From the IMG/VR virus record IMGVR_UViG_3300021478_000003, positions 1 to 62,244 of that record: a stretch of DNA of 62,244 bases; one strand, given 5' to 3'. Position 1 is the first letter of the stretch. Every line of letters begins with the position of its first letter. Below are positions 37,081 to 57,028 of this stretch, in pieces. The notes under the pieces are model-generated. The model did no database searches. It was not told where the DNA came from and worked only from the letters and a program-made list of their open reading frames with translations. The DNA comes from a virus (lineage: Duplodnaviria; Caudoviricetes). Position numbers and translations under genes: made by a program.

Positions 37081-37089
37081 GTAAGCCCG

Positions 37090-37126: not shown

Positions 37127-37129
37127 CTA

Positions 37130-40219: not shown

Positions 40220-40283
40220 ACTGGCTCGTGAAGTACTATTGGGCGGTCATTATTATTTGCCTCATCATCGTCGGCTGGCCGGA

Positions 40284-40666: not shown

Positions 40667-40667
40667 C

Positions 40668-40916
40668 ATGCACCCGACTGCCGCAACGCTTGCCTTGTGC
40701 GGGTTCAAGCCCTACCTCAATTACACTGACTGCCGGTATCGCATCAAGCGTGGGCAGAAGAATGGTGAACCCATGCTTACGTTCTCCAATCTACACGGCT
40801 GGCACACCACGCACGGCGCATCGCTGAAGGAATACTCGGAGATAGAGTGGGGAGTCATTGCACCGATCATGGGTGAGATATCCCAGAACGATCTTGACTG
40901 GCTGTTGAATCAATAG
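40668..40916 (+). CDS. LxLxG paralog family member (subfamily A)
   Basis: TLALCGFKPY..RIKRG..EPML.F..W..LKEYSEIEW. Confidence 0.72.
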   Translation: MHPTAATLALCGFKPYLNYTDCRYRIKRGQKNGEPMLTFSNLHGWHTTHGASLKEYSEIEWGVIAPIMGEISQNDLDWLLNQ

Positions 40917-40943
40917 ACACTTGGTTGCTACCGACCACATGTC
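40916..40943. promoter_or_regulatory. 28-bp palindrome, copy 5
   Basis: GACACTTGGTTG-ctac-CGACCACATGTC; overlaps the upstream TAG. Confidence 0.8.
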
Positions 40944-40966
40944 TTTCACTTGTTAGGAGAAGAACC

Positions 40967-41344
40967 ATGTTCACATATGCAGACTTCACATCGCAGCGCT
41001 GCACGGCCGCTCAGTATATCGGGCAGTTCGTCGACGACAACGTGCGCCGCTGCGTCACCAAATACATCTCCATCAAGAAGCTGATGGAGACACCATCGTG
41101 CGACGACATCGATGAGCTGGTGTGGGTAGCGATTGCCACCTGCGTCACGCCATTCGTCGCCGCGCCTATTATCCAGTCCGGCTACCCGCATTGCGACGGC
41201 GAGCTGGTGGTGCAGATAGCCCAGTGTGCCGCGTCCCAGATGCGCAAGGCAGCGCTGCACTTCAGTGGCGACAGCGACGACGCCCGCCTCCAGATACAGG
41301 CGTTCAAGATCATGAAGGAATGCCTTGCTCGGGTGATGCGGTGA
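40967..41344 (+). CDS. Hypothetical protein
   Basis: AGGAGA RBS. Confidence 0.7.
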   Translation: MFTYADFTSQRCTAAQYIGQFVDDNVRRCVTKYISIKKLMETPSCDDIDELVWVAIATCVTPFVAAPIIQSGYPHCDGELVVQIAQCAASQMRKAALHFSGDSDDARLQIQAFKIMKECLARVMR

Positions 41345-41604
41345 GCAGGTGGGAAGAGATTGTCATGATGTGCACGCTGCTAGGCATCAAGCCCTACCTG
41401 CACACCATGGCCACTTACGATAGGCTTCGTCTCAAGCGTGGGCTGCACGACTGCGAGAAAGTTCTCACGTGTATAGGTGGCATCTGGGGTACGGCCAGCA
41501 GCATGCCTCTTCACAATTACGTCCCCATCAGTTGGGGGGAGGCGTGCGTGACGGACCTGCTGCAGTTGGGTGAAGCCGACATTGAATACATGAGGGAGGG
41601 ATAG
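41341..41604 (+). CDS. LxLxG paralog family member (subfamily A)
   Basis: GTGA coupling; CTLLGIKPY..RLKRG..EKVL..W..LHNYVPISW. Confidence 0.7.
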   Translation: MSRWEEIVMMCTLLGIKPYLHTMATYDRLRLKRGLHDCEKVLTCIGGIWGTASSMPLHNYVPISWGEACVTDLLQLGEADIEYMREG

Positions 41605-41606
41605 CC

Positions 41607-41876
41607 ATGATCCGCAGCGAAGAGATGTGGCTCACACTGCGGCTGATGGGCCTGCGCATCTACACGTCACAGGTCAGTTGCCCCACCGTTCAGAGCCTGC
41701 GTATCATGCGAGGCCAACGTGGGTACGAACGCATGCTGCGCTTTGAGGGTGACAAGTGGGTCGTGCGGCGTTCTATCGAGCTGAGTAATTACAAGGAGGT
41801 CGGGCGTCTCGCCATTACAAGAGAGCCGCTGATGATGCTCACCTATGAATTGCTTGACGTATTCAAGGAGGGATAG
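41607..41876 (+). CDS. LxLxG paralog family member (subfamily A)
   Basis: TLRLMGLRIY..RIMRG..ERML.F..W..LSNYKEV. Confidence 0.72.
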   Translation: MIRSEEMWLTLRLMGLRIYTSQVSCPTVQSLRIMRGQRGYERMLRFEGDKWVVRRSIELSNYKEVGRLAITREPLMMLTYELLDVFKEG

Positions 41877-41877
41877 C

Positions 41878-42150
41878 ATGCACCCTATCGCACTGATCCT
41901 TTCGTTGAAGGGATACAGGCTGTATCGGTTCGAGCCAGGTGTAGGTATGAATACCGGTATCGACAAGTTGTTGCGCATCAAGCAGCAGACACGGCCAGGT
42001 GAAGACATGCTGTCATACCATAATCTACAGTGGATGCGTGTAGATAAACTTTCGTTTGAGCTGGAGCACTACAGCGAGCTGCCGTGGGCCTCAATCGACC
42101 AGTCCATCCTTGATTCAATCACGGATGAAATGATAAACGCACTACCCTGA
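41878..42150 (+). CDS. LxLxG paralog family member (subfamily A)
   Basis: ILSLKGYRLY..RIKQ..EDML.Y..W..LEHYSELPW. Confidence 0.72.
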   Translation: MHPIALILSLKGYRLYRFEPGVGMNTGIDKLLRIKQQTRPGEDMLSYHNLQWMRVDKLSFELEHYSELPWASIDQSILDSITDEMINALP

Positions 42151-42176
42151 CATCTGGTTGCGGGCAACCAAGTGTC
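42149..42176. promoter_or_regulatory. 28-bp palindrome, copy 6
   Basis: GACATCTGGTTG-cggg-CAACCAAGTGTC; overlaps the upstream TGA. Confidence 0.8.
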
Positions 42177-42197
42177 TCAACTTGCTAGGAGAACGTC

Positions 42198-42485
42198 ATG
42201 GAACTGAACACCATCAATATCATCAACAAGACCGGCGACGAGCCAGAGCCGAACATGATGCAAGATGTACTCGCCCATTGCCAGGGTCATCTGGTCGGCG
42301 GCTACAAGATCGACATCAATGTCAACCAACGCACGCCTGTCGACGCGCCGCCCCAAGATCGCCCGGGCTGGCTGCAGTTCGAGATCGTTGTGTACTTCAA
42401 CAAGCTGTCGCCTTTGCGCATCACTGCGATGCAGCGGCATCTTGGCGCATCCACTGAATTCCATCCTGATCGTGAGTACGCCTAA
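42198..42485 (+). CDS. Hypothetical protein
   Basis: AGGAGA RBS. Confidence 0.7.
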   Translation: MELNTINIINKTGDEPEPNMMQDVLAHCQGHLVGGYKIDINVNQRTPVDAPPQDRPGWLQFEIVVYFNKLSPLRITAMQRHLGASTEFHPDREYA

Positions 42486-42717
42486 CAAGAGCGATCAGCA
42501 AGAGATCGCGGACTATGTGAACGAGTATCTTGCGAACGACTCGCTCACTTACCAAGCCGATGCCCACGCGGAAGAGTGCCAACGCTGGGCTAAGGCGCTC
42601 GCCCCGCGCTGTACACCGCGTCCTGTCTTGAGGCCCAGTCGCCGGCCGCTGGTAATCAAGACCGTAGTTGCGGCGTGCGTGGTGGCCGTATTATGGGTGA
42701 CGCTGCATTTTTTGTGA
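42472..42717 (+). CDS. Small protein with C-terminal TM
   Basis: GTG start; hydrophobic C-terminus. Confidence 0.5.
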   Translation: MSTPNKSDQQEIADYVNEYLANDSLTYQADAHAEECQRWAKALAPRCTPRPVLRPSRRPLVIKTVVAACVVAVLWVTLHFL

Positions 42718-42744
42718 TGATAGATTTGAACAAGGGAGGCAATC

Positions 42745-43389
42745 ATGCCGCAAACACGTGAGATACAAGTGTACGATTACGACGAACTATCGACCACGGC
42801 CAAGGCTCGTGCGCTCGACTGGTTCAGGGATCGCTATCTCGATGATGACTGGTCCGATGTCATGTTGGACGACGCCACCATGGTACTATCGCACCTCGGT
42901 CTTGAGCCGGTCAGCGGTCGCGGTAAGCTGGGCTTTCAGTTCGCGCTCGGCGAGGCGCTGGTGTTCGATGCTAACTGGGTGGCGCATCAAGTCACGATAC
43001 CCGGCTTAGTAGGGTATATACCTGAAGCCAGCAACAAGCGCGAGGACGATGTGGTGGACATCTCTGCGGTGTGCGTTGAGCTGTCGGCCATCGCGCTCAA
43101 GTTCCCAGAGGGTACAGGGCAGATACGGATCAGCGGGCGTAGCATCATGTCGAAACACATGACGTTTGAATTTGAAACCAACATCGTGGCAGGCGATACG
43201 CTGGAGCACGACGCGGCCGAGCAGCGCATGTCGGAGTTGTGGCAAGACGTGTGCATCTGGGTGCACAAGAAGCTGGAAAGGGAATACGAGTACGTGACGT
43301 CCGAGTCCGAGCTGGAGGGCGGTATCCGTCACCTTGGTATCGAGTGGCACAAGGATGGCAAGATGTTCGCCATACCACCACACGCTTGA
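42745..43389 (+). CDS. Protein resembling the family annotated as 'antitoxin of toxin-antitoxin stability system'
   Basis: VY.YDELS..AKARA.DWFR and LEREYEY.TS.....I......W..DG termini. Confidence 0.6.
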   Translation: MPQTREIQVYDYDELSTTAKARALDWFRDRYLDDDWSDVMLDDATMVLSHLGLEPVSGRGKLGFQFALGEALVFDANWVAHQVTIPGLVGYIPEASNKREDDVVDISAVCVELSAIALKFPEGTGQIRISGRSIMSKHMTFEFETNIVAGDTLEHDAAEQRMSELWQDVCIWVHKKLEREYEYVTSESELEGGIRHLGIEWHKDGKMFAIPPHA

Positions 43390-43459
43390 TCGATTCTTTA
43401 AACCGTTTTAAAGTAGTGACCGCTGCCACTCATTGCAGCTAACTCGATAGGAGAAAATC

Positions 43460-44485
43460 GTGAGCAATTACATCAATAGCAACCTGCTGTATCGTCTGTC
43501 CATCTCGACATGGACGGCACGCAAGAAAGACAAAGATCAGTCGGCCAAGGTGAACACCGAAGCCGGTGCCAGCGAAGGCGCAGCCAATGTCTACAAGCAA
43601 CTGCTGCCCGACTCCAAGGAACTGGACGACGTGCAGAAGTGCGCAACCTCCATCCGCACCTGGGTGTACCATAATACTTCGCCGTGGGATGATGGCGGCT
43701 GGCGTATCGGCCAGTGCTCACGTCACATGGACTTCATGCGTGAGGCTGGCGACAAGATGCGTGAGTACGATGAGCTGGTCGACAAGCTGGTCAACGTCTA
43801 CGCTCAGGCTGTGCAGAATGCCAAGTTCACGCTGGCCGACATGTACAATGAAGACGACTACCCCGGCGTCAACGAAGTACGTGCCAAATACGCGATCAAT
43901 GTCGACGTGAAGTCGCTGCCGAACGTGGAAGACTTCCGTGTGGTCGACGGTATCCCGCAAGAAGAGGTCGACCGCTTGCTCGCTTCGGCCAAGGCAGATG
44001 TCGATGAGCGCGTCAGCGCCGCCATGGAGTCGGCATACTCACGCCTGTTCGACGTGGTATCCAAGATGGCATCGACGTTGACTGCATACGGCGAGAAAGA
44101 TATCAAGAAGTTCAACGATACCTTAACCGGCAACATCTCGGCGCTGATCGCAGTGATGCCGGGGCTGAACATCACCAACGATCCGAAGTTGGCCGCGCTC
44201 GCCGATGAAGCTAAGCGCTTGCTCGACTACGACCTCGGCGATCTGCGCAAGGATGAAGGCGCACGCAAGTGCGCTATCGAAGACGCGACCAAGCTGGTCA
44301 AGAAGTTCGGTCGCGGACATGAGGTTGTCGAACAACCAGTTGTCCTCGCCACCACGTCGCAAGCCGTGGCGTCGCTGAACAAACTGTCGGCCGCGATGAA
44401 GCGCCATGGCGAGAGTGCGCCTAAGTCGCCGGTCTTGACTGACGACGATGCTGACCTGTTGTCGTCCATGTCGGGAGATGACTGA
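43460..44485 (+). CDS. DUF3150-like protein
   Basis: L.IS.W.ARKKD, T.PW.D.G.R, Y...DYP....VR.K, LNITNDP.L; sits upstream of the AAA ATPase. Confidence 0.65.
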   Translation: MSNYINSNLLYRLSISTWTARKKDKDQSAKVNTEAGASEGAANVYKQLLPDSKELDDVQKCATSIRTWVYHNTSPWDDGGWRIGQCSRHMDFMREAGDKMREYDELVDKLVNVYAQAVQNAKFTLADMYNEDDYPGVNEVRAKYAINVDVKSLPNVEDFRVVDGIPQEEVDRLLASAKADVDERVSAAMESAYSRLFDVVSKMASTLTAYGEKDIKKFNDTLTGNISALIAVMPGLNITNDPKLAALADEAKRLLDYDLGDLRKDEGARKCAIEDATKLVKKFGRGHEVVEQPVVLATTSQAVASLNKLSAAMKRHGESAPKSPVLTDDDADLLSSMSGDD

Positions 44486-44715
44486 TGGATGCCCCGCGTC
44501 CAGCACAGGGGCATCCGGGGGAAAGGTTCATCGCCCGCATCTGGTTTTTGGAGCTGTCGGTGGCGATAGCCCAGCTTCACCCGAACAAGTGCGGCGAGGC
44601 AGGGAAGGTCGCGCTGACGCAGAGTAGCCTGTTCATGCCGCGCTCTCGGCACTGACTTAGTTTCAAGACCGTAGTTCAAACTTTCGCACCACCACTCGAT
44701 AGGAGATTTTCAATC

Positions 44716-45846
44716 ATGGCAACACGTCTCAACGATTTACCACAGGTTCTGATCCGCAACTACTTCGCTGGCATCTCGACCTTCATCCACGGCAAGCCTG
44801 CGCTGGGTAAGACCGATACCATCATGGCGTTCGGAGAGAAGATGAAGGCCAAGCTGGGCGAGCGCGGCGAGGACTTCCGGGTGTGGCTGTTCTACGCACC
44901 TACCATGTCGCCGATGGACATCCAAGCGTCGGCCCCGAACTACGAGACCGGCAAGCTGGACCTGTACAACAACGTGGCTCTGCCGAACGCTTACGATGAG
45001 ACCGATGAGGTCAAGTTCAAGGGCGTGATCTTTTTCGGCGAGATGACCAACGCCGATCCGTCGACCATCAAGCTGTTGCAGAAGTACGTGAACCGTGAAG
45101 ACATGAACGGCAAGCTGAAGCTGCCTGACGGCGTGCAGGTAATCGTGGACGGCAACCGGATCGAAGACAAGTCCGGCGTGCAGCAGCAGGGCCGTGCGTT
45201 CATGTCGCGCTTCGAGCATATCGAGGTCTACAGCGAAGCGCAGGACAACATCAACTTCGCGGCGCGCAACGAGTGGCACCCTAACGTCCAGACGTATTTC
45301 AAGGACCATCCGGGCGACATCGACAACTACGACGAAGTGTTCCAGACTTCCGGCTCGGTCAACAAGGTCTCCGGTAAAGCCAACAGCGGCTTGATGGCCG
45401 AGGAAGGCCGCAAGGGTATCTGGGCATCCATGCGTAGCTGGAAGCGCATCAGCGACAAGGAAAAGGTGGCTGACCAACTGAAGTCGCCGATGACCCTGGG
45501 CGAGATGACCGGCAATCTGGGCAGCGGCGTCGGTGCATCGTACATGGCGCATCGCGACTTGATCGGCCGGCTTGCGTCGTTCGATGAAGTCATGGCCAAC
45601 GCGGAACATATCGACCTGCCTACCAAGATCGATGAACAGTACATCTTATCGCTGCTGGTGGCCATGCGTTGCAAGCCGGAGCAGATGGATACCGTGAAGG
45701 CGTTCGGTGTTCGCATGCCGATGGAAATGCAGGCAGTCATGCTGCGCAATCTGGCATGCCGTAAGGGCTTCAACCTGCACCACTCGGCAGCCTACAAGGA
45801 CTGGATATCCAATCCGGAAATCGTGCAGCTTATCAACGGCCGCTAA
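44716..45846 (+). CDS. AAA+ ATPase (MoxR-related)
   Basis: Walker A GKPALGKT, GNR.ED sensor, SRF arginine finger, SMRSW; Walker B reads VIFFGE. Confidence 0.82.
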   Translation: MATRLNDLPQVLIRNYFAGISTFIHGKPALGKTDTIMAFGEKMKAKLGERGEDFRVWLFYAPTMSPMDIQASAPNYETGKLDLYNNVALPNAYDETDEVKFKGVIFFGEMTNADPSTIKLLQKYVNREDMNGKLKLPDGVQVIVDGNRIEDKSGVQQQGRAFMSRFEHIEVYSEAQDNINFAARNEWHPNVQTYFKDHPGDIDNYDEVFQTSGSVNKVSGKANSGLMAEEGRKGIWASMRSWKRISDKEKVADQLKSPMTLGEMTGNLGSGVGASYMAHRDLIGRLASFDEVMANAEHIDLPTKIDEQYILSLLVAMRCKPEQMDTVKAFGVRMPMEMQAVMLRNLACRKGFNLHHSAAYKDWISNPEIVQLINGR

Positions 45847-45855
45847 TCAAACTCG

Positions 45856-45883
45856 GACATCTGGTTGCACCCGACCAGTTGTC
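45856..45883. promoter_or_regulatory. 28-bp palindrome, copy 7
   Basis: GACATCTGGTTG-cacc-CGACCAGTTGTC. Confidence 0.8.
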
Positions 45884-45898
45884 CAACTGGAGAACACC

Positions 45899-46318
45899 AT
45901 GCAAGTAACGAATTGGTTTATCGCGGACCCCGATCATAAGGGGTGGTATCAAGTCCGTAACGATATAGTTAAGGCGCAGCTATACCGTTACTGGGCCGGA
46001 GATGGTACCTGGAGTAACGCGCTAACCGAAAAAGATTTCAAGTCGCTGTCGCCGTCCACTGAAATCATCACGTGCTATCTCAACTACAGAGTCGAGTGGC
46101 GTGGGGTACCCGATGCGCCGCGCCACACGTATGCCTTTGATGTAGACATCACGGGCTCGTTTGAGATTGAAGCGCGTGACATTGACGAAGCGAAAGCAAT
46201 GATCCAAGGATGGCTCACGAACGTTGAAGGTTTCAATACCGGCAAAGGTTTTGAAGTAAGCCTGTACGGCGATACTGATATGGCAGTCCTTGAATCGGTC
46301 GACGGTATCAGGCAGTAG
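45899..46318 (+). CDS. Hypothetical two-domain protein
   Basis: GGAG RBS; P.H.GWY.V...RYW.G..W...WRG module plus an IEA.DI.EA module. Confidence 0.7.
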   Translation: MQVTNWFIADPDHKGWYQVRNDIVKAQLYRYWAGDGTWSNALTEKDFKSLSPSTEIITCYLNYRVEWRGVPDAPRHTYAFDVDITGSFEIEARDIDEAKAMIQGWLTNVEGFNTGKGFEVSLYGDTDMAVLESVDGIRQ

Positions 46319-46320
46319 CC

Positions 46321-46623
46321 ATGCACTCGAACGCCGCGTTCCTCGCGCTCAACGGGTGCATACTTGCTGTGCCCAAGGGAGCGCCGAGGAACTACAGGAT
46401 ATTTTCTCGGCGTGAGACGCGCAACCCGATGATGCTGAGATACGAGGATAACAGCCGCTGGGTTGCGTCACCACTATCTATCAAACAGGGAGAATATAAT
46501 CGCCTCATTAACGGTGAGGTGTACGTCACGCAAGATTGGGATTACATCCCCGACGATGTGATGGATCGCATGAGCGATAAAGCTATTGAAGAATTTCTCG
46601 GCATACCCCGAGGCTGGATATAA
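46321..46623 (+). CDS. LxLxG paralog family member (divergent subfamily A)
   Basis: FLALNGC..YRI..PMMLRY..W..QDWDYIP. Confidence 0.65.
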   Translation: MHSNAAFLALNGCILAVPKGAPRNYRIFSRRETRNPMMLRYEDNSRWVASPLSIKQGEYNRLINGEVYVTQDWDYIPDDVMDRMSDKAIEEFLGIPRGWI

Positions 46624-46640
46624 CTTGCTAGGAGAAAGAG

Positions 46641-47786
46641 ATGAGTAGGAATCAAAACGTAACGACCGCAGCCGCAGTGCGCATGACCATGATGCACCCA
46701 TTCTGGACGGAGCTGTTCTACTCCATGAATATCGTGGAGGTGCATCCCGACGACCCGCTGGCCAAGCGCTTCAAGACACAGGGGACGGATGGCCGCACGA
46801 TCTGGGTGAACGTCGAGTTCTTCAAGAGCATCCCACTGGAGCAGCAGGTCTCCGAGCTGGTGCACGAGATATGCCACAAGGCGTTCCTGCACACCACGCG
46901 GCGCGGCATGCGCAACCCGAGCCTGTGGAATACTGCGTGCGACTACGTGGTCAACGCCATGATGGCCCAGAACAACTTCGTCATGGACGCTACCTGGCTG
47001 CTGGACATGCAGTATCTCGGCTGGTCTGCTGAAAAGGTCTACTCGCATCTGGAGAAGCAGCAGCGCGAGGGGCAAGGTAGCCCCGGCACATCCGACAGCC
47101 GGATGGACATCGAAGAGTTCAAAGGCTCGCCTGAAGAGAAAGAAGTGGCCGAGACGCAGATCAAAATGCTGGTCGACAAAGCCCTCGCCACGGCCAAGCA
47201 CTTCGGCAACGTGCCTGTTGGCATGGAGCAGGCCACGCTCGACATCTACGAGGCTCCACGTGAACCATGGTACAACGCGTTGCACAGATATATGCAGTCG
47301 CTGACCGTGGCCAATTACAACTGGGCCAAGCTGAATAAGCGCACGCTGCGCACGCACGGCCTGTTTGCCCCGCTCAATACCAGCGAGGCGCTGGGTGTGG
47401 TGGCGCTGTTCATCGACACGTCCGGCTCATGCTTCCAGCGGGCGCAGCAGGCCAACTTCGCCGGCCACCTGAACGCGATCCTCGCCGAGTGCAAGCCGCT
47501 GCGGGTGCACGTGTATTACTTCGACACGGCCGTCTACACTGGGCCGGTCGTGGAGGCGGGTGAGATTGACATTGCGCTCACACCACGGGGGGCAGGCGGC
47601 ACGAACTTCATCCCGATCTTTCAGGCGCTGGAGGACGACGATGTGCTGCCGGAGGTGTGCATCATCCTCACCGATCTGGAGGGTAGCTTCCCATCGCAGG
47701 GGCCGGACTATCCTGTGGTGTGGGCGTCGATCTATGAAGGTGAGAACTATGTGGCACCGTTCGGCGAAACCATTTACGTGGAGTAG
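46641..47786 (+). CDS. DUF2201-type metallopeptidase plus vWA domain protein
   Basis: HEICH (HExxH), WN.ACD..VN, MIDAS DTSGS, GGTNF, TD.EG. Confidence 0.88.
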   Translation: MSRNQNVTTAAAVRMTMMHPFWTELFYSMNIVEVHPDDPLAKRFKTQGTDGRTIWVNVEFFKSIPLEQQVSELVHEICHKAFLHTTRRGMRNPSLWNTACDYVVNAMMAQNNFVMDATWLLDMQYLGWSAEKVYSHLEKQQREGQGSPGTSDSRMDIEEFKGSPEEKEVAETQIKMLVDKALATAKHFGNVPVGMEQATLDIYEAPREPWYNALHRYMQSLTVANYNWAKLNKRTLRTHGLFAPLNTSEALGVVALFIDTSGSCFQRAQQANFAGHLNAILAECKPLRVHVYYFDTAVYTGPVVEAGEIDIALTPRGAGGTNFIPIFQALEDDDVLPEVCIILTDLEGSFPSQGPDYPVVWASIYEGENYVAPFGETIYVE

Positions 47787-47788
47787 CC

Positions 47789-48097
47789 ATGGCCACGATC
47801 AAACGCAGCAAGCGTGAAGCGCTGGCCAGGAAGCGCAGGGTCAAGGCTGACCAGCAGATCACCACCATGACGTTGAACGGCTGGCAGCCGGTACGCACCA
47901 GCGCTGAACCCGGGTGTGCGGATGAGGTAGGCATCTACCACCGAGAGCATGGCATTATCGCCCGGACTCGGGGCGGTAGCGTGATCCGGTATCGGCACCG
48001 TAACCCGCCGCGCCACCATGTCACGATCTGGGCCGAGCTGAATGTCTATCGCATCTTCTGGCTGTTCGGCAGGCTGGAAAAGGAGAAGCTACTATGA
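47789..48097 (+). CDS. LxLxG paralog family member (subfamily B, basic N-extension)
   Basis: TMTLNGWQP..GIYHREHG..IWAEL. Confidence 0.62.
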   Translation: MATIKRSKREALARKRRVKADQQITTMTLNGWQPVRTSAEPGCADEVGIYHREHGIIARTRGGSVIRYRHRNPPRHHVTIWAELNVYRIFWLFGRLEKEKLL

Positions 48098-48324
48098 CCC
48101 GCGAAGACTGCATCACCCTGCTGAAGCTGCGCGGCTGGGAGCCGCACACTGGCTTGACCATCGTGTCGCAGATACACGGCAGGATGATCTTCGTCGGCTA
48201 CTCCGGCATGAACTGCCCGACTATCGAGCGGCGATCTGACAAGACGCGCAGCATCGGCTATGACTGGGACGACTTAACCATCAGCATGCTCAACGATTTT
48301 GTTGAAGCTACTGGCAACCTTTAG
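48094..48324 (+). CDS. LxLxG paralog family member (subfamily B)
   Basis: MTREDCITLLKLRGWEP..DWDDL....L..F. Confidence 0.72.
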   Translation: MTREDCITLLKLRGWEPHTGLTIVSQIHGRMIFVGYSGMNCPTIERRSDKTRSIGYDWDDLTISMLNDFVEATGNL

Positions 48325-48332
48325 GAGGCATC

Positions 48333-48644: not shown

Positions 48645-48853
48645 CTCGCGGCGACTGGTATGCCAAGAAATACGGCGGTGGCTGGCGCACCGTGCGCAAG
48701 GTGCTGGGTATGAAGTGCGGCCGCTTCGGCTGCTTCCATGTCACGGTGCCAGGCGATCAGCACTTCGATACGCGGCAAGTAACGGAATGGCCGAAGACGT
48801 TGTGCATCTGCGCCAAGTGCGCCAACGAAGAACTCAAGGAGCCGCCACCATGA
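48641..48853 (+). CDS. Small Cys-rich protein
   Basis: ATGA coupling; C....C and C.CAKC. Confidence 0.55.
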   Translation: MTRGDWYAKKYGGGWRTVRKVLGMKCGRFGCFHVTVPGDQHFDTRQVTEWPKTLCICAKCANEELKEPPP

Positions 48854-49401
48854 CACGCGATGAAATGCAGGCCCACCTGATCGTGCACGGGTGGCGGCCT
48901 GCGGGATACCTGAGCATCATGCATGATCTGCACACACGCCTGTATATCAACGAGCAAGGCGTTGCCGACATTTACCCGACCAGCGTGGATACAAGCTGGA
49001 AGAGATGGAGCGATGTGCCAGAAGATCACTTGATTGCATTCTGCACGGCGCTTGAATATGGGATGCACCTCTTGTTAGTTGACCCGCAAAAGATGCTGTC
49101 GCTTCGCATCGCTGCGATGGCGAAAACATCACGGCTGGCATTGGAGTCTATCCGGTATGAAATGCTAGACGCGCATTGGGCTTCTAAAATAGGTGTGCAC
49201 GACGAACTGAGGTCAGCTCCGCTGGCGAAGTTCTACATGGATGAATGCACCGACTTCAAGGTGTACCCGGACCCACGCCCTGTCAGACCACTTCGCCATG
49301 CAGGAAAGATAGACCACACGAATAAGTTCGGGACGCCTGAAACCTCGATAGCCAAGAAGGTTTCTGGCTTGTGGGGCAAGTTGGCGGCGAGGTTGAAATG
49401 A
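48850..49401 (+). CDS. LxLxG paralog family member fused to a C-terminal extension (subfamily B)
   Basis: MTRDEMQAHLIVHGWRP..SIMH..RWSDV....L..F. Confidence 0.68.
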   Translation: MTRDEMQAHLIVHGWRPAGYLSIMHDLHTRLYINEQGVADIYPTSVDTSWKRWSDVPEDHLIAFCTALEYGMHLLLVDPQKMLSLRIAAMAKTSRLALESIRYEMLDAHWASKIGVHDELRSAPLAKFYMDECTDFKVYPDPRPVRPLRHAGKIDHTNKFGTPETSIAKKVSGLWGKLAARLK

Positions 49402-49661
49402 ACATCGACCAGCTTGTCACTACGCTGATGTTGATGGGGTACAGGGTCGGGGAAGACATGGATATCGGCGGCAATGTCGTAGGCTCGCTGCGCAGCATCG
49501 TGCACATCCCTACCGGTGATACGTACAGGGAAATGGGAGTTACAACCCGCTGGTATTTAAGCGTCGTTAAATCAGCCCGCTATAAGGAAGGAGGGTGGGA
49601 AGCTTTTAGTACATCCGAACTTGAGACTTTCTATAACTACGTTAAGATCGGACCGCCGTGA
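49398..49661 (+). CDS. LxLxG paralog family member (subfamily B)
   Basis: TLMLMGYRVG.D..IVHIPTG.TYR..WY..LETFY. Confidence 0.72.
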   Translation: MNIDQLVTTLMLMGYRVGEDMDIGGNVVGSLRSIVHIPTGDTYREMGVTTRWYLSVVKSARYKEGGWEAFSTSELETFYNYVKIGPP

Positions 49662-49915
49662 TGAACCGTGACGAACTTATCATCACGCTCAAGCTAATGG
49701 GCTACCGCAGAGGGCCGGATATTAATGGATCAAGTTCGTTTTTCACCTGCATTACGCATGCACCTAGTGGCACCATATATAGGCTGTCTTTCTTAAAAGA
49801 TGACACGTGGTACAAGAGTCAACGGCCACCCCAAGGTTTGGACGATAAGCTGGAAGAGATGGATGCGCGGCACCTAGAAAGCTTCTACGCATTTATAACG
49901 CAAGACCGTAGTTGA
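49658..49915 (+). CDS. LxLxG paralog family member (subfamily B)
   Basis: TLKLMGYRRG.D..ITHAPSG.IYR..WY..LESFY. Confidence 0.72.
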   Translation: MMNRDELIITLKLMGYRRGPDINGSSSFFTCITHAPSGTIYRLSFLKDDTWYKSQRPPQGLDDKLEEMDARHLESFYAFITQDRS

Positions 49916-49940
49916 ATTAGTTGCATTTGCAAGTTATACT
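49912..49940 (+). promoter_or_regulatory. Sigma70-type promoter
   Basis: TTGAAT-N17-TATACT; spacer TAGTTGCATTTGCAAGT. Confidence 0.75.
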
Positions 49941-49965
49941 GAAGTTCCATCACAGGAGATTAAAA

Positions 49966-50307: not shown

Positions 50308-50310
50308 ACC

Positions 50311-50664
50311 GTGAAGACAGTGGGCGTCCGGTGCAGCAGGGATAAATGCCGGAAGCGTCGCTGTCTTCCGGTCGACTGGAAAGACTATGAGTTCTCCACC
50401 ACGCCGTACACATGCATCTGCGGCAGCACCAAGTTCGTGGAAGACGCATGGAGAAAGACACGGGGCACGGCGCAGCGATGCGACTGTCTCAACTACAATT
50501 TCCCGCACCGCAAGCATAGCCAGAAGTGCAGGCATCACCCGCTCGCCGAGTGGCACATCGCACGTGACAGGTACGGCGTGCAGGGCGAAGAGTTGCATGA
50601 TATCTGGCTTGAGTGTACGTGGGCAGCCGAGGGAGGGCAATGTAATGAGGCAGTCCCTTTTTGA
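50311..50664 (+). CDS. Cys/His-rich (Zn-binding) protein
   Basis: C....C, C.CG, C.C..Y.FPHR..S..C. Confidence 0.6.
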   Translation: MKTVGVRCSRDKCRKRRCLPVDWKDYEFSTTPYTCICGSTKFVEDAWRKTRGTAQRCDCLNYNFPHRKHSQKCRHHPLAEWHIARDRYGVQGEELHDIWLECTWAAEGGQCNEAVPF

Positions 50665-51001
50665 CGACGGCTTTCATGTTGGCCCTTTATTCATAGTCAC
50701 CACGCGTAAGCCCAAGGTGGTGCGACCGTCAGGTGGCAAGGAAGTGTGGGCCAAATACAAGCGGGCCACTCCACCGTGGGCTGATAGAAACGCGATACGC
50801 AAGGCGTGGGAACTATCAGCACTGGCCACGGCGATGAGTGGCATACAGCACAGCGTCGACCACATCGTGCCGCTGGTGAACCCGATAGTGTGTGGCCTGC
50901 ACGTGGAGTGGAACCTTCGGGTGATCCCACTGGAGGACAACGTAAAGAAAGGAAATGCGACATGGCCGGATATGCCGATGCAACAGCTAGAGCTGTTATA
51001 G
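50645..51001 (+). CDS. HNH endonuclease
   Basis: ATPPWAD..VDHIVPL....VCGLHV.WNL......N..K.N. Confidence 0.82.
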   Translation: MRQSLFDDGFHVGPLFIVTTRKPKVVRPSGGKEVWAKYKRATPPWADRNAIRKAWELSALATAMSGIQHSVDHIVPLVNPIVCGLHVEWNLRVIPLEDNVKKGNATWPDMPMQQLELL

Positions 51002-51615
51002 AAGAGCGCGAGCGCACGGCGCTTATCATCCTGCGCGGCGGCGTGCTGATCCATGACTGGATCAATCGCAACAGGGCGTTCCGTGCGGCCCACATGCGCG
51101 AGTCACTTGGCTTTGCTGCTATCGAAAAAATTGCGATGACCGCCGATACATACGACACCACTGACGAATTCATTTGCCAGGTAGGTGTGTTCAATCAGGA
51201 GATGCAACATGCCGCTGCCAAACTACGGAGCGAAGCCGACCACGGCTTCATGCTCGCTATCCAGCGAGCCTACCCCGGAATTGTCGTCTTCAAGCCAGTG
51301 GCCGAGTGGAAGAATGGAGTCGAGATTAATGGGTTCTTCTATCATGGAGGGGACTGCGGGGATGCCCGACGCCCAGTTGCGCGCACATCTATTGATACAC
51401 GGACAACCGCTCTTGTTGAAGTGGAGGATTATCGACTCACTGCACTCCGAATGCGTGAACAGCAAGATCGGGTGCGGACTGTACTCCGCAAGTTTGAGAG
51501 ACAGATCGTTGACGAAGCCGCAGCGCGTGCATCTCGCACAATTACTAAGAGACCACAATCGGAAGATTACCTTTATGACCCGCGAATGGGAAAGGATAGT
51601 CTCGGATTCTGGTAA
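50962..51615 (+). CDS. Hypothetical protein
   Basis: AAGGA upstream of ATG 50962; long open frame. Confidence 0.55.
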   Translation: MAGYADATARAVIEERERTALIILRGGVLIHDWINRNRAFRAAHMRESLGFAAIEKIAMTADTYDTTDEFICQVGVFNQEMQHAAAKLRSEADHGFMLAIQRAYPGIVVFKPVAEWKNGVEINGFFYHGGDCGDARRPVARTSIDTRTTALVEVEDYRLTALRMREQQDRVRTVLRKFERQIVDEAAARASRTITKRPQSEDYLYDPRMGKDSLGFW

Positions 51616-51876
51616 TAGCTGCGAGTGGTTTAACTGGGGCTCGCGCTTGAGCAATGGCCACGAGTATCATTTCACTATGGTAGTGTACGGCGAAGACACT
51701 GTAATCGTTGAGGGGTAGATAATGCCAGCACTTGAACCCTACGTCTCCGTCCGCTTCTGGGGCATCGTCTGCCAGAAGCCCACGAAGAAACCGAAGTATC
51801 AGTTCCCAATGCCCGACAAATTATTCCGGGGCTGGGTCAATCCAAAGACAGGCATCACGCCGCATCACTTAGGACT

Positions 51877-52089
51877 TTGAAAATGAAACTCTATTGCATA
51901 CGCCGAGCCGAGATTGATGTGGGCTACGATGAAACAGCAGCGATAGTGGTGGCTGCCATGTCACCTAAAGCGGCATGGAGGTTTTTCCCGACCTATAACG
52001 ACCAGTTTCCGCAGACGATCACGTTGATCGGTACAGCTCACAAGTCGCTTAAGGCTGGGATCGTCCTGACTGACTTCCGTGCTGGCTAA
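51877..52089 (+). CDS. Small hypothetical protein
   Basis: YDE....VV.A.....A...IG.A......GIVL.DF.AG pattern. Confidence 0.65.
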   Translation: MKMKLYCIRRAEIDVGYDETAAIVVAAMSPKAAWRFFPTYNDQFPQTITLIGTAHKSLKAGIVLTDFRAG

Positions 52090-52092
52090 TCC

Positions 52093-54066
52093 ATGGACCT
52101 CTACACGATAGACTACGAGACGTTCTATGGCGACGGCTACACGTTGTCAGGGAAAGAGATGACGACCGAGGCGTATGTGCGTGACATCCGTTTCGAGACG
52201 ATCCTGCTGTCTATCAAGCGCAACGCCGAGCCAGCGTACTGGGTGCCGCGTGACAAGGTGGCCGCAGCCTTGCACAAGATCGAACTGCACAAGCATGCGG
52301 TGTGCATGCACCACGCGCACTTCGATGGCTTCATCAGCAACTTCCATTACGATGTCCGGCCGCGTCTCTTCATCGACACCTTGGGCATGGCGCGTGCGGT
52401 GCACGGTGCCACCGGCAAGGGGCATCTGAGTCTCAAGTCGCTGTCCGAGTTCCATGGCCTGCGCCCCAAGGGTGAGGAAGTTCTGAAGGCGCGCAACAAA
52501 CGCTTCTGTCACTTCACACCACGAGAGCTTGCGGAGTACGGCAGTTACTCCTGTCTCGACAGTGACATCACCTATGACTTAGCGCAGATACTGCTGCCTA
52601 ACTTCGACAGGTCCGAGCTGGAGATACACGACCGTATCATCCGCATGTTCACTGAGCCGGTGTTGGAACTCGACATCGACCTAATGAAAGAGTACGTCAA
52701 GACCATCGGTGCTGAGAAGGCGTCGCTGATGCTGCAGGCCGGGGTGCAGCGCGCTGACCTGATGAGTAACGATAAGTTCGCCGAGCAGTTGCGCATGCTG
52801 GGCGTCGACCCTCCAATGAAGATCAGCCCCGCATGGCTGAAGAAGACCATGGAAGAGCAGATCGCTTCACCTCACAAGCGTGACGTGTATGCCTTTGCCA
52901 AATCCGATGCGCCGATGCAGGCGCTGCAGGAGCATCCCGATGAGCGCGTTCAGATACTGATCGAAGCGCGGCTCAAGAACAAGTCGACCATCGCTGAGAA
53001 GAGCGGCTTGCGGATGATTGCCATGGCAGAGCGCGGGGCGGCCTGCATGTACTTCAAGTACTCAGGTGCATCGAATACGCACCGGCTGTCCGGTGCCGAC
53101 TCGATCAACTGGCAGGCACTAAAGCGGATCGACCGCTCGGTCAAGGAGGCGCTATGGATACGCGATGCGGTCATGGCCCCCAAGGATCACGCCGTGGTGG
53201 TGGGTGACTCATCCAATATCGAAGCGCGGATGCTTGACTGGCTGGCTGGCCAGGAAGACATGGTGAACGTCTACCGCAAGTCCGACAAGATCATCGGCTA
53301 TACCCCGGAGGGCAAGCCGATCCCAGGTGGCCCCGACATGTACTGCGTCATGGGCGAGCGCTTGTACTTGCGGCCGATCAACAAGAAGGATGACCCGGAA
53401 GAGCGCCAGTTCGCCAAGGTCATGAAGCTGGGGCTAGGCTTCGGCATGGGGGCAGCAAAGTTCATCCATACAGTACGTGCTCAGGCCAAGGAGAACGGGC
53501 AACCCAAGATCATCAGTGCCGCTACCTCACAACAAGTTGTGGATGTGTACCGGAAGGCCCATCCACAGGTGCAAGTGTTGTGGAAGCGTGGCGAGAGTAT
53601 CCTGAAGGTCATTGCGAACGGCGTAGAGGGGGTAGCGCTCGACCAGCACGGTGTGGTGAAGACTTGCAAGGATGGACTCATCATGCCGAACGGGCTTAAA
53701 ATCCTGTACCCGGACCTGCAGTATAAGAAAGATGCCAACAATGGCTGGAAGGGCGCGTGGACTTATTGGAATGGCAAAGCCCGTGAGCATATCTATGGCC
53801 CGAAAGTAATAGAGAACGTGGTCCAGTGCCTGGCCCGGATCGTGGTGTTTGAACAGTGCCTGCGCACTGCCAAGATCGTGAAGGGTATTGCCCGCTGGGT
53901 AATGTCGGTGCATGATGAGGGCGTTTTTGTAGCGCACGAATTTGAGGCACCGTGGGTTATGCAGGTCTTGATGGAACAAATGCGCATCCCACTGTGGTGG
54001 TGCGAGACATTGCCGCTCAATAGCGAAGGCGGCTTTAACCGGAGATACGGACATGCTAAGAGCTAA
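52093..54066 (+). CDS. DNA polymerase family A with 3'-5' exonuclease
   Basis: IDYET, HAHFD, Y...D exonuclease motifs; motif A DSSNIEAR, motif B RQFAKVMKLGLGFG, motif C VHDE. Confidence 0.92.
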   Translation: MDLYTIDYETFYGDGYTLSGKEMTTEAYVRDIRFETILLSIKRNAEPAYWVPRDKVAAALHKIELHKHAVCMHHAHFDGFISNFHYDVRPRLFIDTLGMARAVHGATGKGHLSLKSLSEFHGLRPKGEEVLKARNKRFCHFTPRELAEYGSYSCLDSDITYDLAQILLPNFDRSELEIHDRIIRMFTEPVLELDIDLMKEYVKTIGAEKASLMLQAGVQRADLMSNDKFAEQLRMLGVDPPMKISPAWLKKTMEEQIASPHKRDVYAFAKSDAPMQALQEHPDERVQILIEARLKNKSTIAEKSGLRMIAMAERGAACMYFKYSGASNTHRLSGADSINWQALKRIDRSVKEALWIRDAVMAPKDHAVVVGDSSNIEARMLDWLAGQEDMVNVYRKSDKIIGYTPEGKPIPGGPDMYCVMGERLYLRPINKKDDPEERQFAKVMKLGLGFGMGAAKFIHTVRAQAKENGQPKIISAATSQQVVDVYRKAHPQVQVLWKRGESILKVIANGVEGVALDQHGVVKTCKDGLIMPNGLKILYPDLQYKKDANNGWKGAWTYWNGKAREHIYGPKVIENVVQCLARIVVFEQCLRTAKIVKGIARWVMSVHDEGVFVAHEFEAPWVMQVLMEQMRIPLWWCETLPLNSEGGFNRRYGHAKS

Positions 54067-54226
54067 CATCGAAGCGCAACAGTTGGCCAGCGAAGGCGAG
54101 CGCTTGTACAGTGAAGTGGTGCAGGATGTGCGCGCCGGTCGCACCGTGCTCACCCAAGAACAAATGCAGGTGTTGAATAACCTGCGCAACCAGATTGCCG
54201 AGTGTAAGAAGCTCGGCATTGTTTGA
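54053..54226 (+). CDS. Small hypothetical protein (57 aa)
   Basis: GGAG RBS; fills the gap after the polymerase. Confidence 0.5.
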   Translation: MLRANIEAQQLASEGERLYSEVVQDVRAGRTVLTQEQMQVLNNLRNQIAECKKLGIV

Positions 54227-54262
54227 CCTAGTGTAGTTCCTTTTTAATCTCAGGAGATTCAA

Positions 54263-54778
54263 ATGAGTGACGATCTGCAATCCCAAGTCGACGCCGATGC
54301 AGCCAAGGTGGCCGGCGACGAAGCAACCCTCGCTACCGACCAGTCCCAACTGGCGCAGGACCAGGCAGCACTGGCACAGCAGCAAGCAGCGGCCGCCCAG
54401 GCAGCTCAAGCACAGCAGCAAGCGGCAGTCGCTCCCGTGGTTGACGCTGCTGTGGTTGACGCTGCTGTGGCAGCTCCAGCCATTCCGATGGTCGACACAT
54501 CGGCAGCGCCTACCATCAGCGCTGAAGTTCAAGGCGCAGCCGTGGTAAATCCAGTGCAGACCATGGGCGACTTGATCGCTGCAGCAGCGGCCGCATCAAA
54601 CCCAGTGACGGCAGTTGAAGGCGCTGTGGCTGCGGCCATCGCACCGACCGTCATGTCCGAAGCCGCGCTGGAAGTGCACAAGGCGCTGGACGACATCGTG
54701 ACGTATGCCGAGCGTTTCGGTGGTCTCATCCACCAAGACTTGGTGCGCCTGGTCGCAGCCGTCAAAGCAAAGCTGTAA
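54263..54778 (+). CDS. Ala/Gln/Asp-rich low-complexity protein
   Basis: AGGAG RBS; heptad repeats DQ..LA. Confidence 0.7.
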   Translation: MSDDLQSQVDADAAKVAGDEATLATDQSQLAQDQAALAQQQAAAAQAAQAQQQAAVAPVVDAAVVDAAVAAPAIPMVDTSAAPTISAEVQGAAVVNPVQTMGDLIAAAAAASNPVTAVEGAVAAAIAPTVMSEAALEVHKALDDIVTYAERFGGLIHQDLVRLVAAVKAKL

Positions 54779-54780
54779 CC

Positions 54781-54993
54781 ATGCAGGTATCCATCCGGTC
54801 GTCTGCGGAGTTATCTGCGCAACTCAGGTCACTTCGCAAGGCGAAGGGATGGAGCCAGGCAGAACTCGGACGCAGGCTAGGTGTCACGCAAGCGCGGATC
54901 GCATATATCGAGGGCGACCCAAGCCGCAAGAACGTGACGTGTGTAATTCAGATGCTGCAATTATTGGACGCACGCATACTGATTTGTTTTTAA
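54781..54993 (+). CDS. XRE/HipB-like HTH protein
   Basis: LRSLRKAKGWSQAELGRRLGVTQARIAYIE. Confidence 0.82.
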   Translation: MQVSIRSSAELSAQLRSLRKAKGWSQAELGRRLGVTQARIAYIEGDPSRKNVTCVIQMLQLLDARILICF

Positions 54994-55004
54994 GGGGCCT
55001 CAAC

Positions 55005-55196
55005 ATGCCATGGTATCTAGTGCACACCAAGCACCCACAACTCAAGTGGAAGATCAACAAGTTTGACAAGGTGACGAAGCAAGCAGAGCTTCAGGGTGGC
55101 ACCAGCGCCCCGTTCACTCGCGACATCTCGGATGAGTCGCTGAAGAAACTCAACTACAAAGTTGTGCAACTTCCCGATGAGACTGTTTCTAATTAG
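55005..55196 (+). CDS. Small hypothetical protein (probable paralog of the next ORF)
   Basis: AAGGGG RBS; MPWYLVHTKHP. Confidence 0.62.
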   Translation: MPWYLVHTKHPQLKWKINKFDKVTKQAELQGGTSAPFTRDISDESLKKLNYKVVQLPDETVSN

Positions 55197-55380
55197 CCCG
55201 ACCAAACCAGACTGGCCTTATGAGATTCTGGAATACGACCAGAAGCACCATAGGGCCAAGCTGCGCAGCAAAGAGATGGTGATGATTGACCCGAACTTCT
55301 ATCCCAAGGAGTTGCAGCGTGACGGGTTCAAGCTCACCCAAGAAGTACCGGAGTGCTTCAAGGAGCCGTACCATGTTTAA
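55177..55380 (+). CDS. Small hypothetical protein
   Basis: MRLFLISPTKP; pattern similar to the previous ORF. Confidence 0.58.
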   Translation: MRLFLISPTKPDWPYEILEYDQKHHRAKLRSKEMVMIDPNFYPKELQRDGFKLTQEVPECFKEPYHV

Positions 55381-55672
55381 AAAATATGCAATAGGCTGGT
55401 GGGCCATGGGTGCGACAGCGCTCTGCCACTATAGCTACTGGACAAGCGGTCCGAACTGGGTGGACTTGTCCATGATGTTCGTCAACCTGCTGTCGCTGTT
55501 TATAGTGTGGCTGATTACGACACCGGCACCCTACGTTATGTTCGTGATCCGCACGGGCATGCCGGACCGCAAGCATCACTATCAATACATGTGGATGGCC
55601 AAGGTGCATGCGTGGATTCTCTTGCGCTCCCACTATCACTTCCACATCTACAAGGATGCCGATCATGCCTAG
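55373..55672 (+). CDS. Membrane protein
   Basis: AAGGAG RBS; two TM segments. Confidence 0.6.
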   Translation: MFKKYAIGWWAMGATALCHYSYWTSGPNWVDLSMMFVNLLSLFIVWLITTPAPYVMFVIRTGMPDRKHHYQYMWMAKVHAWILLRSHYHFHIYKDADHA

Positions 55673-55958
55673 CTCTCCTAACTATAAGCGCGACTACAAG
55701 CAGGAAAAGAAAACGTCCGACGCTCGCGGCGAGAAGCCCAAGCGTGCCGAGCGCGACGCCGCCCGCCGCCTCATGGTCAAGAAGGGCATGGTGACGAAGG
55801 GTGACGGCAAGGATGTGGACCACAAGACGCCGCTCGGTAAAGGCGGCGCGCCGCTGGCCCCAAAGAACCTGCGGGTGGAAACTGCTCACGACAACCGCAG
55901 CTTTCCGCGCAAGCCGGATGGCTCCATGGTCAAGAACGTGCCCAAGAAAAAATCATGA
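55665..55958 (+). CDS. Small HNH endonuclease-like protein
   Basis: RDYK.E, GDGKDVDHK.PL.KGG....NLRV.....NRS. Confidence 0.8.
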   Translation: MPSSPNYKRDYKQEKKTSDARGEKPKRAERDAARRLMVKKGMVTKGDGKDVDHKTPLGKGGAPLAPKNLRVETAHDNRSFPRKPDGSMVKNVPKKKS

Positions 55959-56063
55959 TTCCTTGTGCGCAACGTAAGGAGGAAAGCGAGCGAAATATGC
56001 ATATGCATGTTAGCCCTGGCCTTCCTAAGCACCGTGAACATCACCCTAATGTGAAAGATCAAA

Positions 56064-56759
56064 ATGGCCCGACCACTCCCGTGGAGTCACAGCGCGCTCG
56101 ACAGCTTCACGACTTGCCCTCGGCAGTACGAAGAGGTCAAGGTGCTGCGAAACTTCCAAGACCTGAAAAACCCTAACTCGCTTTGGGGTGACGCCTTCCA
56201 CAAGGCAGCAGAACTATTCATCCGCAACACCATTGACGGCGTGCTGGCGTCGATGCCAGGCGACATGACGAAGTACATACCGTACTTGATGGAGTTCGTG
56301 GATCGCCCGGGCATCACGCAGGTGGAGCGCAAGTACGGCCTGAACATCAAGCTGCAGTCGGTGGATTTCTTCGACAAGGACATCTGGCTGCGCGCTGTGC
56401 TGGACGTGGAGACGCTGCACGGCACAACGGCTTGGGTGGACGACCACAAGACCGGTCTGAAGCGCAAGAAGGATATGCAGCAGCTCATCATATTCGCGCT
56501 ACAAACATTCTATCACCACCCGCAGATCAACACGGTCCATGTGTCGTATCGGTGGGTCAAGCTGGGCGCGATGGATGTCGAGACGTTCTATCGGCACCAG
56601 ATACCTGAGATGTGGGAGACGCTTGTGCCACGGCTGAAGAACTACCAACATGCGTTCCATGTCGGTGTGTTCAACCCAAACCCCTCCGGCCTGTGCATCG
56701 CGCACTGCCCTGTTACCACGTGCGAGTTCTGGGGGGTGGGGAAAGGGAAGCGGCGATGA
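56064..56759 (+). CDS. PD-(D/E)xK exonuclease (RecB/Cas4-like)
   Basis: WSHS.L..F.TCPRQY, G..FH, E, D, DHKTG, QL; C-terminal C..CP..C. Confidence 0.85.
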   Translation: MARPLPWSHSALDSFTTCPRQYEEVKVLRNFQDLKNPNSLWGDAFHKAAELFIRNTIDGVLASMPGDMTKYIPYLMEFVDRPGITQVERKYGLNIKLQSVDFFDKDIWLRAVLDVETLHGTTAWVDDHKTGLKRKKDMQQLIIFALQTFYHHPQINTVHVSYRWVKLGAMDVETFYRHQIPEMWETLVPRLKNYQHAFHVGVFNPNPSGLCIAHCPVTTCEFWGVGKGKRR

Positions 56760-57028
56760 GCATGACACGCGAGGAATGCGAGATACACTTGCGATTGCTA
56801 GGGTGGTATCCAGCGTGCATGACGTCAGCAAATAGCTGCTACCGAAGCTGCTACGGATGGGCGCATAAAGGCCGTGTGGGTCGCGGCATAGATCATCTCG
56901 GGAATCTATTCTATATGGCGATGGGTGCGGCTGAACCTGCTGACGCCACCATAGCGGCGTGCCATATCGACAGGGTTCAGTTCGCCACCATTTATGTTGA
57001 CATCGTTCACCTGGCAGAAGACCTATGA
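56756..57028 (+). CDS. LxLxG paralog family member inserted in the replication module
   Basis: ATGA-coupled at both ends; MTREECEIHLRLLGWYP. Confidence 0.62.
   Translation: MSMTREECEIHLRLLGWYPACMTSANSCYRSCYGWAHKGRVGRGIDHLGNLFYMAMGAAEPADATIAACHIDRVQFATIYVDIVHLAEDL

Follow-up and report, generated by a model that had tools for sequence, protein, structure and literature searches.

The window analyzed here is the complete IMG/VR virus record IMGVR_UViG_3300021478_000003 (62,244 bp; CheckV completeness 100%), a Caudoviricetes genome in which eleven small open reading frames (ORFs) fall into two real families, A (n = 5) and B (n = 6). All of the members lie on the + strand within a rightward block that begins at approximately 37.9 kb. 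Family A comprises A1 (40668..40916; 82 amino acids (aa)), A2 (41365..41604; 79 aa), A3 (41607..41876; 89 aa, with a B-like N-terminus), A4 (41878..42150; 90 aa) and A5 (46321..46623; 100 aa). Family B comprises B1 (47789..48097; 102 aa), B2 (48094..48324; 76 aa), B3 (48850..49401; 183 aa), B4 (49398..49661; 87 aa), B5 (49661..49915; 84 aa) and B6 (56756..57028; 90 aa), the last of which is flanked by a PD-(D/E)XK nuclease gene on one side and the gene at 57025-57324 on the other. B1 carries a basic 24-aa N-terminal tail and has an isoelectric point (pI) of 11.1. In B3, the B domain spans residues 1 to approximately 85 and is followed by a C-terminal extension without matches; the whole B3 protein had no Pfam match. 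The summed coordinates of the members amount to approximately 3.2 kb, or 5% of the genome.

The eleven ORFs are real genes that look co-transcribed. All of them were confirmed, tightly packed, at the places given in a preliminary description of this DNA, and two of the start codons listed there were revised: for A2, the ATG at 41365, with the Shine-Dalgarno-like sequence GGGAAGAG upstream, was preferred over the GTG at 41341, and for B5 the ATG at 49661, which overlaps the B4 stop codon, was preferred. Shine-Dalgarno-like sequences precede most member starts, and the junctions to neighboring genes are either TAG-N2-3-ATG or ATGA overlaps, the latter at B1/B2, B3/B4, nuclease/B6 and B6/next gene. 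The third-position GC content of the members was 0.53-0.81, compared with 0.74-0.82 in the core genes.

Family membership was examined by a leave-one-out procedure, in which a hidden Markov model (HMM) built from all but one member was compared with the 883 stop-to-stop frames of at least 40 aa in the window. In each of the eleven runs, the held-out member was the top-ranked non-training frame, with E values from 7e-17 to 7e-4 in A (A1, 7e-17; A2, 3.6e-7; A3, 4.4e-10; A4, 3.9e-13; A5, 7e-4) and from 5e-8 to 0.06 in B (B1, 0.061; B2, 1.5e-4; B3, 0.032; B4, 2e-4; B5, 5.2e-8; B6, 0.01). This result bore out the earlier proposal of about eleven small diverged paralogs in two subfamilies. Additionally, A3 came second or third in four of the six B runs, which was the first hint of a link between A and B. 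All-against-all BLASTP linked A1 to A4, B4 with B5 (35% identity over 86 aa), and the N-termini of B2, B3 and B6. When an HMM was built only from B-like proteins found outside the window, B3, B6, B2 and B1 were the top four of the 883 frames (B3 best, E = 8.5e-7; B1, E = 0.015), and B4 and B5 were not found.

The glycine that follows the first helix is invariant (G12 in A and G14 in B) and is the sole invariant residue of B. R25, L37, W45 and Y56 are invariant in the five A members of the window, and R25, E34, L37 and W45 have a conservation of 90% or more across the 44 A sequences collected by the database search described below, for which the consensus reads MHPKAAxLALHGF...RIKR...E.ML...W...Y..V.W..IPD..D.L..ELI..F. 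Besides R25 and E34, the conserved A residues are mostly hydrophobic, glycine or aromatic, and insertions and deletions are located between the strands. No histidine column is conserved in A (44 sequences) or in B, and A and B have no conserved polar residue in common, histidine included. The motif hxHxxxG, proposed for B in the preliminary description, was present in only part of B. The pI of the members ranged from 5.2 to 11.1, with a median of 6.0 for the 44 A sequences.

To describe the domain, AlphaFold2 (AF2) models of A1 and B5 were compared. The A1 model had a predicted local distance difference test score (pLDDT) of 88.3 and a predicted TM-score (pTM) of 0.79, with helices (H) and strands (E) at H3-10, E14-18, E23-27, E35-40, E44-49, H61-68 and H73-81; the B5 model had a pLDDT of 84.4 and a pTM of 0.74, with H3-12, E15-22, E27-33, E38-43, E49-53 and H69-82. 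The two models agreed in topology (helix, four strands, helix). In particular, the domain consists of an N-terminal helix ending in h-x-L-x-G-aromatic, then a four-stranded antiparallel sheet and, after a conserved tryptophan, one or two helices at the C-terminus. The top-50 structure lists obtained for A and B against 48,161 PDB chains had nine entries in common by hand count.

The comparison of the two profiles extended this similarity to the sequence level. Upon alignment with hhalign, the A profile (44 sequences) and the B profile (alignment A7, 14 sequences including B-like proteins from related phages) matched with a probability of 79%, an E value of 1.6e-5 and a score of 31.7 over 65 columns, from the first to the last helix. 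The control scores were 9.3 for reversed B, 7.6 for reversed A, and at most 11.4 for 60 column shuffles of B (mean 7.4, standard deviation 1.5). A frame in the related phage G004 (62530-62772) was matched by both profiles (A, E = 9e-4; B, E = 1.2e-6), and by eye two further proteins (L017 6383-6676 and L020 7223-7459) appeared to have an N-terminus of the B type joined to a C-terminus of the A type, W..(I/V)P. From the profiles and the models, we conclude that A and B belong to one superfamily of small single-domain proteins, in which the full-length link depends on the relatives that were added. The shared topology and the profile link both support the earlier view of one scaffold expanded by duplication.

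When 1.84 billion cluster representatives were searched exhaustively with the A profile (hmmsearch), 44 proteins were returned at E <= 1e-3, namely the five window members and 39 others, all of which were 80-109 aa in length and matched end to end. Ten of these clusters were looked up and found to be metagenomic singletons or pairs with uninformative names. Two proteins, P0013 and P0018, are encoded on one 3.75-kb contig, and P0012 and P0015 on one 35-kb contig. When the B alignment was used in a word-indexed search, 14 proteins came up at E <= 0.01, of which P0001 is the window's own B5 and at least two of the other 13 (P0051 and P0057) are rows of the query, leaving 11 further B-like proteins; the same type of search with window-only alignments found self matches only. 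We also surveyed 80 viral loci (10,506 frames) that contain a homologue of the DUF2201 metallopeptidase/VWA gene of the window. The A profile matched two of these loci and the B profile four at E <= 0.1, one of which (L033) was a simple repeat. All of the real matches occurred in relatives with an approximately 55% identical DUF2201/VWA protein, and none in relatives at approximately 30%.

Copies were then counted in the whole records of the approximately 55% relatives. G001 (completeness 100%; B count made without the A7 search), G003 (100%) and G006 (67%) had no copy of either family, G005 (100%) had two B copies, G004 (100%) had two A and six B copies at seven places in total because one place is common to both, and G002 (60%) had three A and six B copies. 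Some of the B matches in these relatives belong to the query alignment itself; the new ones number three in G004, two in G002 and one in G005. The copy number among the window and its close relatives ranges from 0 to 11 per genome.

A scan of 185,579 species genomes revealed a single locus, on chromosome 1 of Burkholderia anthina LMG 22950 (L097, 2095355-2111609; 61% GC), that is syntenic with the early and replication module of the window. This region contains four A copies and at least four B-like frames (E < 1e-3) directly after its DUF2201/VWA gene. Of the genomes sampled from the same bacterial family, 398 were scored (three more were left unscored), and B. anthina alone gave a match. The region is probably a prophage of the window's lineage. 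From these matches, the host of the phage is likely to lie in or near Burkholderia. The relative G006 is flagged as a provirus in IMG/VR. Overall, the family is rare and restricted to a single lineage.

In different genomes, the copies occupy corresponding positions between core genes. A1-A4 lie ahead of the 42745/43460 gene pair in the window, and further A copies are found between the 43460 homologue and an ATPase-like gene in G002 and B. anthina. A5 lies between the ATPase-like gene (44716-45846, + strand; identified by eye, with no Pfam match) and the DUF2201/VWA gene (46641-47786, + strand), a slot that is also filled in G002 (L017 4963-5244) and B. anthina (L097, approximately 10315-10566). 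B1 and B2 directly follow the DUF2201/VWA gene, as do B copies in G002, G004, G005 and B. anthina, while B3-B5 follow the gene at 48333 and B6 follows the nuclease gene (56064-56759, + strand). B-like pairs at 23.46-23.80 kb in G002 and 62.27-62.77 kb in G004 were read as the B6 slot from their position; in G002, the upstream frame ends like the nuclease gene by eye. In G001, the core genes that flank the slots are directly adjacent to each other, and the family is thus dispensable for the basic lytic programme.

This arrangement bears on the possibility that the members are adaptor or specificity subunits of the adjacent phage machines, namely the ATPase-like/DUF2201-VWA pair and the nuclease. 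Such a role would agree with the A copy directly upstream of the DUF2201/VWA gene in three of these genomes, the B arrays directly downstream of it in five, the B-like pairs placed by position in the B6 slot, and the stop/start overlaps, which suggest coupled translation. However, G001 and G003 retain the core genes with zero copies, 78 of the 80 surveyed DUF2201/VWA loci lacked an A match and 76 lacked a B match at the threshold given above, and the copy number is too variable for a fixed subunit. We therefore regard an adaptor role as distinctly unlikely.

A maximum-likelihood tree was calculated for 47 A-family proteins, from which P0043 had been dropped as identical to a G002 copy; the alignment offered few columns, and many forks were open. 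The A copies of the window did not group together. Instead, A3 paired with P0018 (support 96/84), A4 with P0025 (100/89) and A1 with P0013 (89/68), all three partners being from contigs other than the window; A2 joined A3, P0018 and P0026 (97/92) on a long branch, and A5 had no resolved place. A recent burst of duplication within the genome was rejected by this tree. The expansion is nevertheless clearly old, and the individual paralogs have each been kept, as indicated by these pairings together with the co-occurrence of P0013/P0018 and of P0012/P0015 on other contigs.

With these results, the notion that the ORFs are functionless filler or that the motif arose by chance is hardly credible. 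The lack of annotation anywhere and the existence of zero-copy relatives would fit it, but it is contradicted by the eleven leave-one-out passes, the 39 further full-length A clusters and 11 further B-like proteins, the confident AF2 models, the coding-type third-position GC, the Shine-Dalgarno sites and the pairs conserved across contigs.

To understand whether the family had been described, the members were compared with curated libraries and known folds. Neither the 11 window members nor the 44 A sequences had a Pfam match at threshold; PHROGs gave one marginal match among the 44 A sequences (E = 0.0032) and none among 14 B sequences, and NCBIfam gave none in either set. PDB sequence profiles matched short stretches only (best E = 0.025 and 0.032). 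Foldseek revealed no match at E <= 0.001 for either model against the PDB or for model A against BFVD, where the best row was an uncharacterised protein at E = 0.028. With VIA-align, in which unrelated models typically still reach a best Z of 7-8 and Z < 4 is common between unrelated chains, the best Z was 4.2 for model B (RWD-like) and 5.4 for model A (a partial sheet of superoxide dismutase, the remaining rows being <= 3.8). All of these Z values are within noise, and thus no fold relative was identified. ESM Atlas feature scores were 0.85 for B5 and 0.78 for A1, against a bar of 0.9 for a lead. A literature search on paralogous small early phage proteins found no paper, and one on the phage KPP25 gave no mention of such a family. 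The superfamily is therefore previously unannotated, matches no described family and is lineage-restricted, in agreement with the preliminary description.

As for function, we tentatively favor the reading, which we consider quite possible, that the members are binding or inhibitor modules without enzymatic activity, serving in host takeover or anti-defence. This proposal is based on the hydrophobic, glycine and aromatic core, the variable loops and charge, the absence of shared catalytic-looking residues, the dispensability, the fixed slots and the tight coupling to early and replication genes. On a common scaffold, the members would act as binders rather than enzymes, the conserved residues holding the fold and the variable hairpin loops and surfaces setting specificity. 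Each old paralog would have its own target among host (or phage) macromolecules, and would serve host takeover or the neutralisation of host defences in early infection. Such a role would fit the placement of the genes and their patchy occurrence. A bolder form, which we hold to be conceivable but rather doubtful, is that of a new counter-defence repertoire superfamily whose specificities number up to eleven or more in a genome, with every paralog neutralising another host defence or toxin effector and the copy number (0-11) tracking the arsenal of the host strain.

Several observations weigh against the binder reading. The paralogs are old and can be matched to counterparts elsewhere, which speaks against rapid arms-race evolution, and R25 and E34 of A could be functional rather than structural. 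The 'early' timing is predicted from gene position only. No characterised inhibitor showed significant similarity, and the small early phage inhibitors scored within noise (T7 Gp1.2, Z 3.6; SPO1 Acb4, Z 2.9; AcrIIA11, Z 3.0). Additionally, the full-length link between A and B was seen only once relatives had been included: hhalign gave 1% over 16 columns, covering only the N-terminal helix-glycine motif, for the window sequences, and 7% over 22 N-terminal columns for A (44 sequences) against the B members of the window.

Two other candidate roles were dropped, an acidic DNA mimic on the ground that charge is not uniform across the members, and a membrane or exclusion protein on the ground that the grand average of hydropathy is near or below zero.

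A share of some 5% of the genome is large for one small domain absent from curated libraries. With its confident predicted structures, conserved old paralogs and fixed slots, the family is a tractable entry into unannotated phage genes; the zero-copy sister phages are natural controls, and a cultured Burkholderia strain carries one relative in its chromosome. Should the members turn out to act as inhibitors, each paralog might lead to a host target or defence system.

Some further features of the family and its relatives were observed. The stretch at approximately 51362..51718 (+ strand; MPDAQLRAHLLIHGQP...) is an uncertain candidate for a twelfth, degenerate B-like member: of all non-members, it was the first to be matched by the B profile, over profile positions 1-68 but only at E = 0.42, and its frame has the highest third-position GC over approximately 51200-51720. 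Across 50806-51718, the frame with the highest third-position GC changes from ORF 50806-51615 to ORF 51185-51718 at approximately 51200, with the first ORF still open to 51615 beyond this point; overlapping genes, a frameshift or an assembly indel could explain the switch. In G002, a single 178-aa ORF (L017 6669-7202) contains two tandem B-type domains, the second starting from an internal methionine at 6957, and is either a fused duplicate or two genes. The B. anthina region contains an additional ORF (L097 8281-8805) between the A array and the ATPase-like gene, with homing-endonuclease-type motifs by eye, and such an ORF is absent at the corresponding position of the window.

We also found a third small paralog family, C, with the motif E..AH..LG followed by strands and the ending W.LVI. 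It is present as four tandem copies in G002 (L013 407-1671) and as single copies in G001 (L012 6259-6492), G003, G006 and the B. anthina region (L097, approximately 9914-10135), the remaining loci being L019 (approximately 2057-2290) and L022 (869-1141). Family C was not found in the window (best match E = 0.36) and had no Pfam match. Its best non-member match was a B-like protein (L017 6269-6676, E = 0.099), and judged from such matches it may be a distant third branch.

The neighbors of the members are paralogs or core genes, and among ten neighboring proteins scanned, DUF2201 and PDDEXK were the only matches. The block also includes the family-A DNA polymerase gene (52093-54066, + strand), whose product shares only approximately 30% identity with the polymerases of the cultured phages that are nearest by this protein, namely Pseudomonas phages Rollin and KPP25 and Rhizobium phage RHph_TM3_14A. 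No match was found in the phage GenBank collection by megablast of 40000-57500 or by tblastn of B4. At 36000-38000, the GC content falls to 0.50, compared with 0.55-0.63 elsewhere, and two strong terminator-like hairpins are present on the + strand (36090-36107 and 37090-37119) just ahead of the rightward block; this region is probably a boundary between transcription units. A 22-nt repeat, AACTTGCTAGGAGAA-N4-(A/G)TG, occurs at 42179-42200, 43441-43462 and 46622-46643, directly at three gene starts (42198, 43460 and 46641), and may be an element common to these genes that acts in translation initiation or lies close to a promoter. The ends of A4 and the ATPase-like gene are followed by a 33-nt repeat (76% identical; 42144-42176 and 45851-45883), and a 16-nt repeat, CAAGACCGTAGTT.., is found at three gene ends (42657-42672, 44664-44679 and 49901-49916); both may be regulatory or terminator-like elements.

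Finally, the superfamily was compared with known systems. The preliminary description had likened the members to the HicA/dsRBD-like fold and raised HicA-like toxin mimics or decoys as their nature. In outline, both are 60-100 aa in length, with an N-terminal helix followed by a glycine turn, antiparallel strands and a C-terminal helix. The small size and the order of N-terminal helix, Gly-aromatic and strands, seen by eye, favored this idea, and HicA3 (4p78) was present in both structure lists. However, that fold has three strands and the models of the members have four, and the HicA3 rows are at noise level (A, Z 2.9, 54 aligned residues, rmsd (root mean square deviation) 3.7; B, Z 2.5, 59 aligned residues, rmsd 5.9). 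In HicA toxins, the catalytic histidine is conserved in the second strand, a residue with no counterpart among the conserved columns here. The Pfam family HicA_toxin (PF07927) matched none of the 11 window members at E <= 1 and none of the 44 A sequences at E <= 0.1. AlphaFold predicted a common topology for A1 and B5, the HicA and dsRBD rows of the structure searches stayed within noise and do not support such a fold, and the mimic or decoy reading is very improbable.

The weak fold rows raise another alternative, that the members are small Sm-like or dsRBD-like nucleic-acid-binding proteins regulating phage transcripts or replication intermediates. These rows are mostly RNA binders: Sm/LSm proteins, in which an N-terminal helix likewise precedes a bent antiparallel sheet, were the top rows for model A (best Z 3.8; 4emh, 49 aligned residues, rmsd 2.8), and dsRBDs reached Z <= 3.5, with a Foldseek E of 0.3 for model B. 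The conserved basic R-I-K-R strand in A, the basic tail of B1 and the location of all members among replication genes point in the same direction. In contrast, every one of these Z values is below 4, the range common for unrelated chains, and the models of the members have extra C-terminal helices relative to Sm/LSm, with an rmsd that is often near 6. Most members are mildly acidic, no basic patch is common to A and B, and the zero-copy genomes replicate with the same core genes. A nucleic-acid-binding role thus appears unlikely. Beyond the readings named in this report, the rest of the probability belongs to other explanations.

RWD/UBC-like domains (kinetochore RWD and E2-like) place their elements in the same order and recurred high in the list for model B (9s5n, Z 4.2; Csm1, 3.4-3.7; bacterial E2-like chains, 3.1-3.6), but these Z values are below the noise level of the tool and are not accompanied by sequence similarity.

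Bacterial polymorphic-toxin loci contain arrays of diverged small immunity proteins, such as SUKH and TriTu, which resemble the present arrays in being tandem, diverged small paralogs on one scaffold that bind and do not catalyse. One ESM Atlas row named a TriTu cluster (PF24689; TM 0.65/0.57), on a low-confidence Atlas model with a pLDDT of 0.54. The members described here differ in that they are found in phage, with no toxin gene seen adjacent and no Pfam match. The small early phage inhibitors T7 Gp1.2, SPO1 Acb4 and AcrIIA11 are likewise small, dispensable and among early genes; to our knowledge, none of them belongs to an expanded family of paralogs. Phages are known to carry small accessory proteins arrayed in variable slots; the copy number found here is unusual for a 62-kb phage, and the scaffold and its expansion are new.

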